In this document: piece by piece, positions 893 to 24,898 of the stretch
Numbering within the stretch: position 1 is the first letter of the stretch
Layout: each line of letters opens with the position of its first letter
NCBI GenBank assembly: GCA_050012475.1
Contig: JBEKHC010000076.1
Coordinates: 1 to 26,013 of the forward strand
Direction of reading: 5' to 3'
Source: Candidatus Velthaea sp.
GTDB lineage: Bacteria > Vulcanimicrobiota > Vulcanimicrobiia > Vulcanimicrobiales > Vulcanimicrobiaceae
Length of the DNA: 26,013 bases
Position numbers and translations under genes: made by a program
Notes under the pieces: generated by a model
Databases searched by the model: none
Seen by the model: the letters and a program-made list of their open reading frames with translations, nothing else
Told to the model about the DNA's origin: nothing

Positions 893-1069
893 GTTTATTA
901 CGTTCTGCGCAATAACGATCGAATTGGTGTAGCGTGCGCTCGCGCAGGCGGTAGAGTTGCGCCGGTCGATTGGCGCTGCTGCGAGGCTTACGGCCTTCGA
1001 CCGGCTTGACGATACCTGGTCTTCGATGTTCTTACGAAACGCCATCCGCACTCAACGCTGCTTTCGCCC

Positions 1070-1089
1070 CCGCCCTCTTTCGAGGGCGG
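1070..1089 (-). terminator. GC-rich hairpin with GAAA tetraloop, probable terminator between convergent genes
   Basis: The minus strand reads CCGCCCTC-GAAA-GAGGGCGG (8-bp perfect stem), about 65 nt after the stop of 1153..1431. There is no clear U-tract. Confidence 0.45.
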
Positions 1090-1107
1090 CCCCAATGGCG
1101 CTTCGTT

Positions 1108-1147
1108 AACAGCGCCGGAGAAACGCCAACAGCGCCGGAGGGACGCC
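1108..1147. repeat. 20-bp tandem direct repeat, 2 copies
   Basis: AACAGCGCCGGAGAAACGCC followed by AACAGCGCCGGAGGGACGCC (18/20 identical). Confidence 0.8.
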
Positions 1148-1152
1148 GCCGG

Positions 1153-1431
1153 TCAGCTCTTGGGTGGCGGTTCCGGCGCTTGGGGCGCTTGCGCGACTTG
1201 CGCCGGTGCTGCCGAAGGCTGGCCGATCCCAAATTTGCCAAGTTCGGCGTTGATCTCGTTGTTCGCCGCGAGGTCGACACCCGTCTTGAGGAAACCGTCG
1301 ATCATCGAGCCACCGGGAACGTGCGACGCGACCGCATCGATGACGTTGTTGATGCCGTTATCTGCAAACGTGTCGACGCCGGCGTCGGCAGCAAATCCGC
1401 CGACTTTCGCCGCAAGGTTGTCGTCGCCCAT
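1153..1431 (-). CDS. Small acidic hypothetical protein (92 aa), paralog of 24453..24653
   Basis: Protein-like composition with a Pro/Ala/Gln tail. It shares an MGD start and VIDAVAS(H/R)VPGG..I(D/E)G.LK with the 66-aa ORF at 24453..24653. Confidence 0.8.
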   Translation of the reverse strand: MGDDNLAAKVGGFAADAGVDTFADNGINNVIDAVASHVPGGSMIDGFLKTGVDLAANNEINAELGKFGIGQPSAAPAQVAQAPQAPEPPPKS

Positions 1432-1444
1432 GAATCACTCGTAC

Positions 1445-1545
1445 GGCTCCGCTCTCGCCCGGAACCAGTCAGCGGCGCGCCGCAACGGCGCGCTTGCCTT
1501 GCGTACTGTATCGCTCGGCAAGCCCCTCTCCCGGCGTTGGGGCAG
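1445..1545 (-). promoter_or_regulatory. Conserved three-hairpin upstream element, copy 1 (candidate cis-regulatory RNA/5' leader)
   Basis: Aligns with 24668..24766. Hairpins are GCCCC/GGGGC, GCGCGCCG-TTG-CGGCGCGC and GGTTCCG-GGCGAGAG-CGGAGCC, the last ending 13 nt before the ATG. Confidence 0.55.
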
Positions 1546-1565
1546 ATGGTCCCATGGCCAAAGAC

Positions 1566-3701
1566 CTATTCCATTAATTGCCGCGCGAGATACGTGAATT
1601 CCAGGGCTGCTTCGAACGAGCGTTCTTTGACGTTTGCACCCGAACTATGACCGCCTTCCATATACTCGAAAAACAGATAAGGAATATGCAGGGCAGCAAG
1701 CTTGGCGGCGAATTTCCGGGCGTGCTGCGGACCGACGCGATCGTCCTTCGTCGTCGTCCAAACCAGCGGTTCGGGATACTTCACGCCGGCGCGGATGTTG
1801 TTGTACGGCGAGATCGCGGCCAAAAACGCGCGCTCGCGTGGAATGGCAACACTGCCGTACTCGCCGACCCATGACGCGCCGGCTTGAATCTTCTCGAAGC
1901 GCAGCATGTCGAGCAGCGGCACCTGAATGTCCACCGCGTGCCAAAGCTCCGGATGTTGCGTGAGCTCGACGCCCATGAGCAAACCGCCGTTCGAGCCGCC
2001 CTGAATGCCGAGATAGCGCGGGCTGGTGATCTTTTTCGCGATGAGGTCGTCGGCCACCGCGGTGAAATCGTCGAACACACGCTGGCGATGCGTCTTGAGC
2101 CCGGCCTCGTGCCAGGCCGGTCCGAACTCGCCGCCGCCGCGAATGTTGGCAAGGACGTAGACGCCGCCGTTGGCGAGCCACAATTTGCCCAACGTCCCGC
2201 TGTATTCGGGCGTCATCGAAATGCCGAAGCCGCCGTAGGCGTGAAGCAGCGTCGGGTTTCGTCCGTCGGCGCGGAGTCGCTTCGGGCGCACGATGAAGTA
2301 GGGAATGCGCGTTCCGTCTTTGGAGATCGCCTCGCTCTGCTCGACGAGATCCGCCGTCGCGTCGAAGCGCGGCGGGAGCGACTTTGCGACCACGGCGGCT
2401 CTCGAGCGGGTGTCGATCCGCCAGAGCGTCGTTGGAATCAGAAAGCTCGTCACCGAAACGAATGCGGTGCTGCCGAATTCATCGGTCGACACGATGTCCA
2501 AACTCGAGTCATCGGCAAATCGAAGCGGCCGGCGCGCCCAGCCGCCGTGCGCGGCCGGCGTGTAGATCGATGCCCGTCCCCGCACGTTTTCGTACGTTGT
2601 GACCAGCAGTCGATCGCGCGTCCCGGCGGCGTTGTCGAACGTTTCGCGCGGGCCCGGAGCGTAGACCAGCATCGGTTCCAGGCGTGCGGGATCGAAGTCC
2701 GCCGCCGCGAGATCGAACGATATCAGCGCGCCCTGCGGAAAAGCCGCGCCGCCCGTGCGCCACGGTTCGTTCAAGTGGAGTAAGAGCCGTCCCGCCGCGA
2801 GCGTCACGAATTCCGCCTTGCGCGGGATGTCGAGCCGCACCAAACCGCGCGGCGTGACGAGGAGCTGCTCGGCCTCGAAAAAGGACAGCCCGCGATGGAC
2901 GATGAGCGCGCGATGCCCCGAACCGTCGTGAAATTCGATCGGCGAGACGCCGACGTCGGCTTTCGTGCCGCGGGTGAGTTCGACCGCCGCCGACAGCGCT
3001 TGTCCGCGCCGCAAGCGCTTGACGACATACGGATAACCCGATGCCGTGAGTTCGCCGGGGCGCCACTCGCGTGCAATCAGCAGCGCATCGTCGCCGGCCC
3101 AGACCGCCTGCTGTTTGCCGCGCGGCAGCGCGAAACCGCCGCGAACGAAGCGGCGAGTCGCCAGATCGAATTCGCGCACGCTCGACGCATCCTCGCCGCC
3201 GTCGGACAGCGCGATCAAACAGCGCCGGCGGCTGGGCGAGTCGCAATCGGCGCCCTGCCAGACCCAGTTCTGCCCTTCGGCTCGCGCCAATTCGTCGAGA
3301 TCGAGGACGGTCGTCCACGCCGGCGCCGAACTTGCGTAGCCGGCGATCGTCGTCGTTCGCCAAATGCCGCGAACGTGCTTGGCGTCTTGCCAGAAGTTGT
3401 ACACCCGTCCGCCGATGATGTCCGGCAGCGGAATCCGGTCTTTGGCCGCGTTGATTGCCAGCGCTTGGGCCTGGAAGCGCGCAAAATGCGGATCGCTGCG
3501 CAGCACGGCGAGCGTTCGCGCATCTTCGGCTCGCACCCAGCTGCGGGCGCGCGCGCCGTTGACGTCTTCGAGCCAGAGAAACGGATCGGCTCCGGCATGC
3601 GCACCCGCTCGTTGGGCAACGGCGGCCGCGAACGTACCGATGATGAGGCACACGCAAGCGGCAACAAGTGCGAGGCCGCGCGCGCGGCTGCGAAACGTCA
3701 C
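1566..3701 (-). CDS. Prolyl oligopeptidase (peptidase S9A) with signal peptide, about 711 aa
   Basis: DPFLWLE N-terminal motif, YGGF, NIRGGGEFGPAWH, catalytic GGSNGG, DDRV and GGH. The start was moved to GTG 3701, which has AGAAAGG upstream and is followed by basic plus hydrophobic signal-peptide-like residues. Confidence 0.93.
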   Translation of the reverse strand: MTFRSRARGLALVAACVCLIIGTFAAAVAQRAGAHAGADPFLWLEDVNGARARSWVRAEDARTLAVLRSDPHFARFQAQALAINAAKDRIPLPDIIGGRVYNFWQDAKHVRGIWRTTTIAGYASSAPAWTTVLDLDELARAEGQNWVWQGADCDSPSRRRCLIALSDGGEDASSVREFDLATRRFVRGGFALPRGKQQAVWAGDDALLIAREWRPGELTASGYPYVVKRLRRGQALSAAVELTRGTKADVGVSPIEFHDGSGHRALIVHRGLSFFEAEQLLVTPRGLVRLDIPRKAEFVTLAAGRLLLHLNEPWRTGGAAFPQGALISFDLAAADFDPARLEPMLVYAPGPRETFDNAAGTRDRLLVTTYENVRGRASIYTPAAHGGWARRPLRFADDSSLDIVSTDEFGSTAFVSVTSFLIPTTLWRIDTRSRAAVVAKSLPPRFDATADLVEQSEAISKDGTRIPYFIVRPKRLRADGRNPTLLHAYGGFGISMTPEYSGTLGKLWLANGGVYVLANIRGGGEFGPAWHEAGLKTHRQRVFDDFTAVADDLIAKKITSPRYLGIQGGSNGGLLMGVELTQHPELWHAVDIQVPLLDMLRFEKIQAGASWVGEYGSVAIPRERAFLAAISPYNNIRAGVKYPEPLVWTTTKDDRVGPQHARKFAAKLAALHIPYLFFEYMEGGHSSGANVKERSFEAALEFTYLARQLME

Positions 3702-7688: not shown

Positions 7689-10600
7689 ATGACGGAATTT
7701 TGGCGCACCGCATTGGGGGCTGGTCGCCGCCCGAGTTCCGATCAGGAAGCCGCGATCGTCGCGCCGCCGACCGGCCGGCGCAGCGTCAACGCCGGCGCCG
7801 GCACGGGCAAGACCTCAACGCTCGCATTGCGCGTCCTCTATTTGATCGAATCCGGTCAGCTGCGTGCCGATCAGATCGTCGTCGTCACCTTCACGCGCAA
7901 GGCCGCAGCCGAGGTCAGCACGCGTATTGCCGATACGCTCGACCGCGCGCGCGCCGGCACCAACGGCGCGCCGTTTGCGCGCAGCGATCAAAGCGTCAAG
8001 TGCACCACGATCCATGCGCTTGCAGCGGAGATTCTGCGTGAAAGCGCCTTCGAGTTCGATGCCCCGGCGCCCCTGCGCCCGATCAGCGACGGTGAAGCCT
8101 ATCGTGTTTTCCACGCGTCGTTCCGCGCGCTGCTCGACGGCCGGCTCGCGACCGGCACCGACGCTTTTCCGATTGCCGAACTCAACCTCGGCGCGCTCGA
8201 ACGCGACTTGGCCAAACTTGCCCTGCGCTTGAAGAATCACGGCCTACGCCCGGACGACTTTGAATCGCGGGCGCTGGCGGCAACCGACCGCTTTGGCCGG
8301 CAACGCTGGGGGCAACTTTGGGAGCCCGGTTCAAAGCGGACCGGCAACCGGATCAACGTCGAGCCGAAAGTTGCGGTCACGGCCGAGGAGCTGGGGCGCG
8401 AGGCGCAACGCGAGCGGGCGAACATCCGGGTCGTCGCTGCGCTCTTCGCAGACTTCGATCGCCGGCTGGCCGAGCGCGGGGCAGCGACGTACGGCGATCT
8501 CATTGCCTTCGCGACGCGGCTGCTGCGCGAACGGCCCTCGCTGGTGATGCGGCTGCGCGACCGCTGGCGTTACCTGCTGCTCGACGAAAGTCAAGATACG
8601 AGCGAACTGCAATTGACCTTCATCGAAACGCTGTTCGGACGGCCGGGAGAATGTGCGGCAGCCGGTATGATGCCCGTCGGCGACAGCCGGCAGGCGATCT
8701 ACGGCTTTAACGGCGCTGCCGAAGACGTGATGGAGCGTTTGGCCGAGGCCGCCGATACGACCCACCCGCTGGTGATCAATCGCCGTTCGCCGCAAGAAAT
8801 CGTGGATGCCAGTCACGCCGTTCTCGAAAAGCACGGCGTCATCGGCGCGAGCATGCCGCGCCTCGAAGCATCGTCCGGCAACGGCGGACTTGGCTGCGTC
8901 CGGCTCGAGACCTTCGGCGAGCCCGGCGGCTCGATCAAGGAGCACGTCGAGCGCGAGGCCGCCGCAATTGCGCGCGAGATCGAACGGCTGCTGCGCGACG
9001 AATCGACGACGACGAGCGACATTGCGATTCTGGTACGTCGCCGCACGCATGCCGCCGCGTACGTCCGGGCGCTCAACGAACGCGGCATCTGCGCCGCGCT
9101 CGACAGGCGCAGCGGTCTGTTCGTCGCCGACGAAATTCGCGACGCGCTGGCGTGGATGTCGCTGCTGCTGGACCTGCAAGATCGTCGCGCGGCAGTCCGC
9201 GTCCTGCAATCGCCTCAGGTGGGGCTCAGCGATGCGACGATGATCGCGCTGACCGCGCGCAAGAACTGGCTGGAACGATTCCTGCGCGACGAACTCGGTG
9301 CCGGAGTCGAAATCGAAACGCGCGCCCGGCTCGATCGCGCGCGCTCGCTGCTGACGGCGCTGTTGCCGTCGGTCGCTCTTCCGCTGTGTTCCGCAGTGGC
9401 GGCAATCCTCGCCGAAGTCCCGCTGGCGGCAAGCTACGTGCGGATCGGGCCCGCGATCGGCGCTCAGGCGATCATCAACCTGCGGAGTTTCGAGGAACTG
9501 GCCCGCGAGTTCGCCGGCGACCGTTCGGACGCGCGTCTGGCAGAATTCGTCGACGACATCGAGCGCCGAATTCTCTACGATGACGACCCCCAGGAACCCG
9601 AACTCGAACTCGATGGGGTTCGGATCCTCACCGTCCACCAAGCGAAAGGGCTCGAGTGGCCCTACGTCTTCGTTGCCTGTTCGACCAAGGCGCAGTACGG
9701 GAGTTCGGAACTCACCGACCGCGTCGTCCACTACGACCTGCCCAGCGGCGCGTTCGCGCTCAAGAATGACGTCGACGGTCACGAGACGTTCCACTGGCTC
9801 ACGCTCAATTGCGAGCATGACCCCGACACCGGCGAGCGCGTCATCCCCGGGAATCGGAAGCGCGCGCACGCGCGCGAGCAGGCTCGCGTCTTCTATGTTG
9901 CGTTGACGCGAGCGCAGCGCCGCGTTTACGTCACGGCGCCGGCTGCGCCGGGCCGCGGCGAAGCGCCGTATCTCGACGCGATCCGCGAATGGGCCGCGGC
10001 GCGCGAACCTGCCGCCAACCTCCGGTTCGATACACCTGCTTCGATCGAATCCGCGGTTGCGCCGGCGTCAACGCCGGTGCAGTCGAAACGAGCATTGATC
10101 GCGCGCATTGCCGCTCCGGAGAATGGCGAAACCGCACCGGCGTTCCGCCCGCGGGTGTCGTTTAGCGCAATCTCGGCATTCGCCACCTGCCCGCGCATGG
10201 CGCGCCTGCGGTACCGGCTCATGTTGCCCGATCTGCGCCGGGCGCAAAGCCGTTTCGTCGGACCGAACGGCCAAGATGCCGGCTTGCCGAGCAATGCCGC
10301 CCGTTTAGGATCGCTGGCGCATCGAGCGCTCGAGCTGTGGGGCCGCGCGACGATTGCTGGCGTCGGCGTGCCGATCGACGCGGCTTTTGCCGGCGCTTTG
10401 CTCGACTTTGCCGATGCCACGCCGCACGAGATCGAGCGTGCCCGCTCCGCAGCCGCCGGTGCGGTCGACGCATTGTCGGGGTATACCGTCCTCGCCGTCG
10501 AGGCAGCATTCGCGATCTCCATCGGCTCGACGAACGTCGAGGGGTTCATCGATCGCATTGCCCGCAATCCGGGCGGCCGGCTCCTGGTCGTCGACTACAA

Positions 10601-24452: not shown

Positions 24453-24653
24453 TTAGTTCTCCGGGGCTGGGTCTTCGGGCGCCGGCGCAGCGTCGGGCGC
24501 CGCGTTCGGCTTCAAGAGGCCCTCGATCGCAGCGCCGCCGGGCACTCTGGAAGCAACGGCGTCGATGACTTCGGTCTCGATTCCGTCGGTAACGGATGAC
24601 TCGATACCGGCGGAGGAAGCCAGTCCGCCAAGGTTGCCCAGAAGATCTCCCAT
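24453..24653 (-). CDS. Small acidic hypothetical protein (66 aa), paralog of 1153..1431
   Basis: GAGGA ribosome-binding site, shared VIDAVASRVPGG core, and a Pro/Ala/acidic tail. Confidence 0.78.
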   Translation of the reverse strand: MGDLLGNLGGLASSAGIESSVTDGIETEVIDAVASRVPGGAAIEGLLKPNAAPDAAPAPEDPAPEN

Positions 24654-24667
24654 TGCATGTTCCTCGA

Positions 24668-24766
24668 GATTCCGTTCGCGCCCGGAACCGTTGGGCGGCG
24701 CAGCCTCATCGGCACGCCCTGTTGCCTACCCGATTGGAGAGCCAAGCCCTTCTGGACAGGAAGGCA
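24668..24766 (-). promoter_or_regulatory. Conserved three-hairpin upstream element, copy 2
   Basis: Hairpins are CCTTC/GAAGG, GCGTGCC-GATGA-GGC(T)GCGC and GGTTCCG-GGCGCGAA-CGGAATC, the last ending 14 nt before the ATG. It aligns with 1445..1545. Confidence 0.55.
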
Positions 24767-24851: not shown

Positions 24852-24880
24852 TTGACATATGTGCCTAAGGCACGTATATA
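24852..24880 (+). promoter_or_regulatory. Sigma70-like promoter with a palindromic operator in the spacer
   Basis: TTGACA-N17-TATATA (imperfect -10). The spacer contains GTGCCT-A-AGGCAC, and the site lies just upstream of the MarR-GNAT gene. Confidence 0.6.
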
Positions 24881-24898
24881 TGTGCTCAGAGCAATTAT

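Follow-up and report, generated by a model that had tools for sequence, protein, structure and literature searches.

A conserved, gene-specific leader with promoter-like boxes and two predicted hairpins precedes an orphan small-protein family in Vulcanimicrobiota

Stem-loops at the 5' end of a message are established stabilisers of mRNA, as in the ompA, papA and aprE leaders. Among promoters, an excerpt of PMC8346170 gives SigB-type -10 boxes the form GGG(A/T)A(A/T), for example GGGTAT, GGGTAG and GGGTAC, with spacers of 12-14 nucleotides (nt) and a weak -35, and an excerpt of PMC2532724 gives the promoters of Synechocystis SigF a TAGGC at -32, a GGTAA at -12 and a stretch rich in A and G. Here we compare with these systems a leader that occurs twice in a 26,013-nt stretch of DNA from Candidatus Velthaea sp. 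(the window, which is contig C76 of a 5.36-Mb metagenome-assembled genome (MAG), G000), upstream of two genes for small proteins, gene A and gene B. The host phylum, Vulcanimicrobiota (Eremiobacterota), is almost entirely uncultured, and we know of nothing that has been established about its promoters or RNA regulation. The locus is a compact, conserved cassette in which a candidate alternative-sigma promoter and a hairpin-first leader (hairpins P1 and P2) stand before an orphan small-protein family. An original prediction, made from the letters of the window, had proposed a three-hairpin cis-regulatory RNA at this place; our analysis finds a real, selected and gene-specific leader and partly supports the RNA reading, for two of the three hairpins and not in a riboswitch-like form.

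Genes A and B are homologous but diverged, as predicted (20/37 identities, E 7e-11, BLASTP), and the alignment of about 100 nt upstream of both open reading frames (ORFs) holds up: over the 105 nt before the ATG the two leaders share 71 matching bases (identity 0.59), a count reached by 0 of 500 dinucleotide shuffles (59.8 +/- 3.2 matches, maximum 68), with random genome segments giving 61.1 +/- 3.5 (maximum 69). Leader identity also exceeds the identity of 0.45 at four-fold sites (n=20) between the two genes, the synonymous comparison suggested with the original prediction, but by a modest margin; coding nucleotide identity is 0.57. The same architecture recurs in ten further distinct relatives from Vulcanimicrobiota MAGs and metagenome contigs, so that 12 of the 25 distinct upstream sequences of the family share it. 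We refer to winA (copy A), winB (copy B) and L020 as the window subtype, and to L014, L021, L022, L026, L029, L032, L033, L037 and L041 as the majority subtype. On the gene strand the order is a GAGGGR box, 14-15 nt of free sequence, an nnGTAn box, 7-9 nt, P1, 7-8 nt, P2, and 13-14 nt holding a GAGGA-type Shine-Dalgarno site before the ATG. These blocks are discrete and invariant among the 12 leaders and their spacing is fixed, while pairwise identity of the encoded proteins averages 64% (all 66 pairs). Four-fold sites across the 12 are near saturation (mean identity 0.47 vs ~0.36 for random), and because the architecture is kept despite this, selection acts on the leader. The features of the two copies are as follows.

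1153..1431, minus strand: gene A, 92-amino-acid small protein (ORF list)
1435..1440, minus strand: weak Shine-Dalgarno-like GAGTGA of copy A, 3 nt before the ATG at 1431..1429 (sequence)
1445..1466, minus strand: P2 of copy A, GGTTCCG-GGCGAGAG-CGGAGCC, 7 base pairs (bp), 8-nt loop (folds; p=0.040)
1475..1493, minus strand: P1 of copy A, GCGCGCCG-TTG-CGGCGCGC, 8 bp (minimum free energy (MFE) and centroid folds; contiguous stem p=0.055 vs shuffles)
1503..1508, minus strand: -10-like box CAGTAC of copy A, 14 nt past the -35-like box (GTA invariant in leaders)
1523..1528, minus strand: -35-like box GAGGGG of copy A (sequence; pattern in family upstream regions)
24453..24653, minus strand: gene B, 66-amino-acid diverged paralog of gene A (BLASTP and protein tree)
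24660..24665, minus strand: Shine-Dalgarno GAGGAA of copy B (sequence)
24668..24689, minus strand: P2 of copy B, GGTTCCG-GGCGCGAA-CGGAATC, 7 bp, 8-nt loop (MFE fold, pair table)
24697..24718, minus strand: P1 of copy B, GGCGTGCC-GATGA-GGC(T)GCGCC, 8 bp, one of them U-G, plus a single bulged T (MFE fold)
24726..24731, minus strand: -10-like box GGGTAG of copy B, 15 nt past the -35-like box (sequence)
24747..24752, minus strand: -35-like box GAAGGG of copy B (sequence)

The hairpin part of the leader occurs solely upstream of the small-protein family. In the whole genome, leader model R2 matched the two copies alone, and a scan for the P2 pattern gave one 1-mismatch match on contig C46 and three 2-mismatch matches, at all of which R2 was silent; the proposed search for further genomic copies thus returned no convincing site beyond the two. 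Across 151 family genomes, model R1 (nine majority leaders) recovered the known L014 genome and four matches of 27-28 bits (L050-L053), while R2 gave one added 40-bit match (G160) in 151 phylum genomes. We rejected L050-L053 and G160 as extra leader copies, the former lying in or antisense to ORFs and the latter antisense to one. Also rejected was a coding role for the leader itself, as N-terminal extension or upstream ORF: its translations are not conserved across members, and in-frame stops stand 1-3 codons before the ATG in winA/L019, L022/L023 and L026/L027.

The upstream half of the leader is a bipartite box, GAGGGR-N14-15-nnGTAn, which, scanned as [AG]A[GA]GG[GA]-N14-15-nnGTAn, is present in 13 of the 25 distinct upstream sequences; the alignment places it with one mismatch in L014, L033 and L041, and L042 has an N17/CTAT variant. 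The -35-like element takes the forms GAGGGR, GAAGGG and CAGGGG, and the -10-like element is most commonly CGGTAT, CGGTAG or GGGTAG, with AGGTAT, AAGTAG and CAGTAC as further variants. GTA is present in 12/12 leaders, GGTA in 8/12 and the full GGGTA in copy B alone, and the spacer between the boxes is held in length and free in sequence. When winA is compared with its closest relative, L020, conservation begins exactly at the -35-like box. The box is kept without P1 and P2 in L034, L035, L036 and L040, where the 5' untranslated region (UTR) is 38-42 nt, and in variant form in L042 (19 nt), which makes it a module separate from the hairpins and more widely conserved than they are.

No sigma-70 consensus promoter lies near copy A or copy B. 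The tRNA genes of this genome use the canonical TTGACR-N17-TAnnnT, and its strict pattern is found in 4/54 tRNA upstream regions and 0/12 leaders. The genome encodes a sigma of the SigB/F/G subfamily (TIGR02980, 287.8 bits vs a cut-off of 234.35), and a SigB/F/G-type sigma scores above the cut-off in four of five other genomes that have the small gene. The sigma gene (G000:C83:11422-12099, minus strand) belongs to an apparent five-gene operon, which by its translations runs from a membrane protein through a YtxH-like protein, a STAS-type antagonist and an anti-sigma kinase to the sigma, and GTGTAG-N14-GGGTAT precedes it, ~40 nt before the first ORF. The related pattern GTTT-N14-17-GGGTAT is found 12 times in the genome vs three in the reversed control.

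Set beside SigB/SigF-type promoters (B. subtilis SigB, GTTTAA-N12-14-GGG(A/T)A(A/T); the S. coelicolor SigB homologues; Synechocystis SigF), the leader is alike in its 14-15-nt spacer and resembles them in a -10-like box of the form nGGTA(T/G), which is GGGTAG in copy B; its upstream box is rich in purines, with G as the first letter. The host likewise encodes a sigma of the subfamily, with the GTGTAG-N14-GGGTAT site at that sigma's own operon. Unlike these promoters, the leader has GAGGGR in place of GTTT or GNNT at -35, often has C or A for the first G of GGGTA, and in copy A carries CAGTAC at -10; the pattern scan detected no regulon. On these grounds the upstream half (GGGCTTG..GTA(C/G)GCAA) is better read as an alternative-sigma promoter than as RNA structure, a fallback that the original prediction had kept for part of the element.

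The RNA structure that had been proposed for this half, stem 1, occupies the following positions and was not retained.

1522..1543, minus strand: stem 1 of copy A (GCCCC..GGGGC), arms 1539..1543 and 1522..1526
24748..24764, minus strand: equivalent of stem 1 in copy B (CCTTC/GAAGG), arms 24760..24764 and 24748..24752

The letters of the claimed double compensatory change are present, but the pairing is at chance level: when 5-bp matches of the G-rich box were sought in the 30 nt upstream, shuffles gave means of 4.7 and 5.3 contiguous pairs, and 56% and 82% of them, for the two copies, were at least as good as stem 1. Its 3' arm is the -35-like box, and its 5' arm is not conserved in relatives. 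A further candidate, a hairpin around the GTA box (P0), was seen in single folds and rejected, its registers differing among members (by eye).

The middle hairpin and stem 3 of the original prediction correspond to P1 and P2, and both are present in each copy as described; the two apparent P1 mismatches of copy B in the common register arise from its bulged T. In nine of the 12 leaders P1 forms an uninterrupted stem of 7 bp or more that starts 9-10 nt past GTA (p 0.000-0.055, shuffles), and in the remaining three (winB, L022 and L026) it has a bulge or a G-A mismatch. Over the 12 leaders 94% of P1 alignment cells are paired, the alignment being fitted to the model. The P1 loop ranges from 3 to 8 nt, a variation that is easier to reconcile with a hairpin than with a dimer operator. 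For P2, 76% of cells are paired in the common register of the 12 leaders, and in a subtype-specific register 7/7 are paired in all three window-subtype leaders. Between the two copies P2 keeps its 7 bp and 8-nt loop through U-G/U-A and G-C/G-U changes, as had been claimed, and ends 13 nt (copy A) or 14 nt (copy B) from the ATG. Non-Watson-Crick cells in the stems number 14 G-U vs 2 A-C, the asymmetry expected for a sense-strand RNA, and the same P1 pair goes from C-G to U-A in L029 and in L020. The pattern of changes is consistent with formation of both hairpins in the RNA. The earlier claim of selection on RNA structure thus stands in so far as the leader is under selection and two of its three hairpins keep their pairing; covariation, discussed below, does not reach significance.

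The region between P2 and the start codon bears on what the hairpins might do. Where copy A has GAGTGA, its relatives have GAGGA or GAGGG. Pairing of the Shine-Dalgarno site is not above that of shuffled upstream sequence in 9/12 leaders, and only in L037, L022 and winB does pairing of the region surpass that of at least 94% of the shuffles; we rejected sequestration of the site by the hairpins as inconsistent across leaders. CGCTGACT comes after P1 and GTACGAG after P2, and with no terminator-like site anywhere in 1050..1750, a role for them as intrinsic terminator of the upstream gene was rejected as well. A riboswitch-like or thermosensor-like leader, as originally suggested, fits poorly with the absence of a terminator in that interval and with a Shine-Dalgarno site that lies outside P2 and is not occluded in nine of the 12 leaders. 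The leader resembles RNA thermometers (ROSE, fourU) and translational riboswitches in having 5' UTR hairpins immediately before the ribosome-binding site and a small gene of stress type after it, and differs from them in this free Shine-Dalgarno site and in showing no aptamer-like junction and no Rfam match. The element is probably not a ligand-sensing riboswitch.

A search of Rfam 15 gave no match at the gathering score in the whole window, in agreement with the earlier remark that the element was not recognised as a known RNA family. In E-value mode, copy A matched only SAM-IV (11.7 bits, gathering score 38) and RsmY (9.9 bits, gathering score 57), and the best match of the L037 leader was sroD (19.9 bits, gathering score 50). 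Like the orphan motifs that Rfam classes as 'Cis-reg; leader', the element is conserved and structured and is linked to a single gene family of a single lineage; unlike them, it is absent from Rfam 15, its best sub-threshold matches (9.9-19.9 bits) fall short of gathering scores of 38-191, and it lacks covariation support. No description of the motif appears in the titles and abstract openings of the papers listed by a literature search on Eremiobacterota promoters, the one place where a prior description was sought.

We postulate that the locus is a two-module expression cassette, a gene-specific stress-type promoter followed by a structured 5' UTR with a 5'-terminal hairpin, and we would give this proposal an even chance of being correct. 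An alternative sigma, probably a group-3 SigB/SigF-like factor such as this genome encodes, would use the GAGGGR and nnGTAn boxes, 14-15 nt apart, and transcription is predicted to start ~7-10 nt past the GTA box, at the foot of P1. Given the fixed 9-10-nt distance from GTA to P1, the hairpin would begin at or within ~2 nt of the predicted mRNA 5' end. The 5' UTR would then be ~65-70 nt long and consist of P1, P2 and an exposed Shine-Dalgarno site. As a 5'-terminal stem-loop, P1 would shield the short message for this small, stress-type protein from 5'-end-dependent decay, and P2 may add stability or modulate translation. Such a leader would be like the 5'-terminal stem-loop stabilisers of E. 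coli ompA and papA and B. subtilis aprE in having a hairpin predicted 0-2 nt from the 5' end and an accessible ribosome-binding site after it; it has no sequence relationship with them.

Several results weigh against this proposal, on both its promoter side and its RNA side. A genome scan for the bipartite pattern gave 59 hits vs 208 in the reversed control (31 vs 65 in non-coding sequence), and a simpler regular-expression scan for the box gave 32 vs 106; with no genome-wide enrichment, no regulon backs a dedicated sigma. The -35-like GAGGGR differs from the GTTTAA or GNNT of SigB-type promoters and also from the GTGTAG at the genome's own sigB operon. With the R1 model, copy A is barely detected, at 12.3 bits (E 0.72), and neither copy B nor L020 is recovered; the homology of the two leader subtypes therefore rests on their shared architecture. 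P2 is weak or replaced by alternative pairings in L029 and L041, and the hairpins are dispensable for the family, some relatives having neither P1 nor P2. Covariation is not significant with nine sequences (156/500 shuffles reach the observed values) or with 12 (70/500 reach the percentage paired, 178/500 the covariation score), an outcome that the original prediction had itself named as a refutation, although the test is low in power with 12 related sequences and nearly invariant stems. Folding energy is ordinary for the composition, the MFE z-scores of the 12 leaders being -1.82, -0.32, -0.47, +0.55, +0.10, -0.46, -0.45, -0.31, +0.10, -0.97, -2.03 and -2.41, that is, ranging from -2.4 to +0.55 with 3/12 below -1.8.

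Other explanations account for parts of the same evidence. The P1-P2 leader could be a new cis-regulatory RNA that binds a metabolite or protein, or senses temperature, and so controls translation or mRNA stability. In favour of this are blocks that are invariant beyond the needs of pairing, GGCTCGCGGCC being invariant at all but one position in the eight majority loci aligned and GGTTCCGGGCG being shared by winA, winB and L020. The wobble-biased stem changes point the same way, as do the three leaders (L037, L022 and winB) whose Shine-Dalgarno site is more paired than in at least 94% of shuffles, and MFE folds of L037 and L026 in which the P2 5' arm can pair with the Shine-Dalgarno region instead; the RNA would be new, having no Rfam match. 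We nevertheless consider such an RNA unlikely, since it would consist of two simple hairpins that lack a junction and whose loops and bulges follow no conserved pattern common to both subtypes, its covariation is not significant and its z-scores are ordinary, the Shine-Dalgarno site is open in nine of the 12 leaders and no terminator is present, close relatives of the gene manage without hairpins, and there is one copy per gene with no spread to other genes. A more specific form, which we regard as less likely still, would make P1-P2 a lineage-specific regulatory RNA of Vulcanimicrobiota, in which the invariant 5' half of P2 (GGCUCGCGGCC; GGUUCCGGGCG in the window subtype) switches between its own 3' arm and the Shine-Dalgarno site, driven by a protein, a small molecule or temperature, and so gates translation of a stress-induced small protein whose gene a SigB-like sigma transcribes. 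Conservation could instead act on DNA, in which case the P1 inverted repeat, lying across the predicted start site, and the CGCGGCC-like blocks, which are repeated, would be repressor operators and the hairpins a by-product. The near-invariance of the stems (3/7 P1 pairs do not vary in the nine majority leaders), the fixed distance of P1 from the -10-like box and the divergent MarR-GNAT gene adjoining copy B would suit operators. The loops of 3-8 nt, however, leave the half-sites at varying distances, no one regulator gene adjoins the loci consistently, and the arms go to G-T and rarely to A-C (14 vs 2), though either mismatch would harm a DNA palindrome equally; operators are in our judgement a rather poor prospect.

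The boxes might also belong to one longer RNA element, whose transcription would start at an unconserved promoter further upstream or continue from the S9 peptidase gene by read-through. Copy A lies just 134 nt downstream of that co-directional gene with no terminator between them, and sequences near the GTA box form hairpins in individual members. These hairpins occur in at least three registers across members (by eye), however, and stem 1 is at chance level, while the boxes keep a promoter-like spacing around a free spacer, persist where the UTR is 19-42 nt, and are flanked by different genes at different loci; we hold a longer RNA to be improbable. Last, the modest excess of leader identity over four-fold-site identity is what a recent duplication of gene and flank could leave behind as a neutral relic. 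A relic is very improbable because conservation spans 12 distinct loci: the architecture is kept in orthologs whose proteins average 64% identity and whose synonymous sites are near saturation, as discrete blocks with fixed spacing.

As a promoter followed by a structured 5' UTR, the two-module cassette would be a feature of an ordinary kind, though the lineage is unusual, and the evidence is below the standard for naming a new RNA family. If the boxes do prove SigB/F-dependent, they would supply the phylum with a first stress-regulon promoter motif, and if the hairpins prove regulatory, the leader would be a new motif of its kind.

The small proteins themselves belong to a rare family. Genes A and B have zero Pfam or NCBIfam family matches, and the ESM Atlas returned hypothetical-protein clusters alone, with scores of at most 0.89. 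AlphaFold2 models the product of gene A as two helices (4-34 and 41-64) joined at a conserved PGG motif; with a mean pLDDT (predicted local distance difference test) of 54.9, the model was too low in confidence for a fold search. Twelve homologs were found at E<=1e-3 among 5.77e9 proteins, and the family is present in 7/401 sampled phylum genomes, all seven within one family; its loci number five in genome contigs and 23 in metagenome contigs. Around G000 the distribution is patchy: the three other genomes sampled from its genus (completeness 88-94%) yielded no member of the family, and a single-protein query found it in 1/24 other sampled family genomes. The protein tree is poorly settled (14/22 inner branches open), and gene B forms a very long branch in it. 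The product of gene B is without the family's second conserved helix (KTGVDLAANN...): the gene (24453-24653) stops after the PGG turn, with a Pro/Ala-rich tail in place of that helix. Gene B may be decaying or changing function, though its full leader is kept.

Neighbouring genes differ between loci, from which we take it that the cassette moved together with its gene. At the majority loci a DUF1232 gene (27.2 bits) lies divergent to the small gene, with a DUF2461 gene and a saccharopine-dehydrogenase-like gene as the other neighbours, while in the window an S9 peptidase gene lies upstream of copy A and the divergent MarR-GNAT gene stands by copy B. The DUF1232 gene (L022:1253-1519, minus strand, with equivalents in L014/L025, L021, L026, L032, L033, L037 and L041) starts (GTG; ATG in L025) ~8 nt past a conserved GGGTAT, with a conserved GGAAAC 15 nt further upstream; this pair of boxes looks like a second, SigB-type promoter for a nearly leaderless mRNA.

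Some minor observations concern the surroundings of the two copies. At 24857-24898 of the window, a 21-nt near-palindromic AT-rich box, ATATGTGCCTAAGGCACGTAT, whose arms are 90% complementary, is followed by a degenerate tandem copy (71%) that reaches right up to the TTG (24899) with which the divergent MarR-GNAT fusion gene starts. The box looks like a putative MarR operator and lies ~100 nt upstream of the -35-like box of copy B. Just past the stop codon of gene A, at 1108-1147, there is a tandem 20-nt direct repeat (AACAGCGCCGGAGAAACGCC and AACAGCGCCGGAGGGACGCC, 90% identical), and after it, at ~1065-1095, a GC-rich hairpin without a U tract. The pattern scan also turned up a near-identical repeated element of ~90 nt (GAGGGGA.GGCGTACCAGAGCAGGGTAA.GACACCCCC.ACCCTGGCACGGTGATGTGTGACGGG...) near 105835 of G000:C4 (minus strand) and near 9821 of G000:C99 (plus strand). 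At L028:1-230, upstream of the homolog there, lie tandem repeats of ~19-20 nt (AGGATGACGGGATGACAAG-like) in at least four copies.

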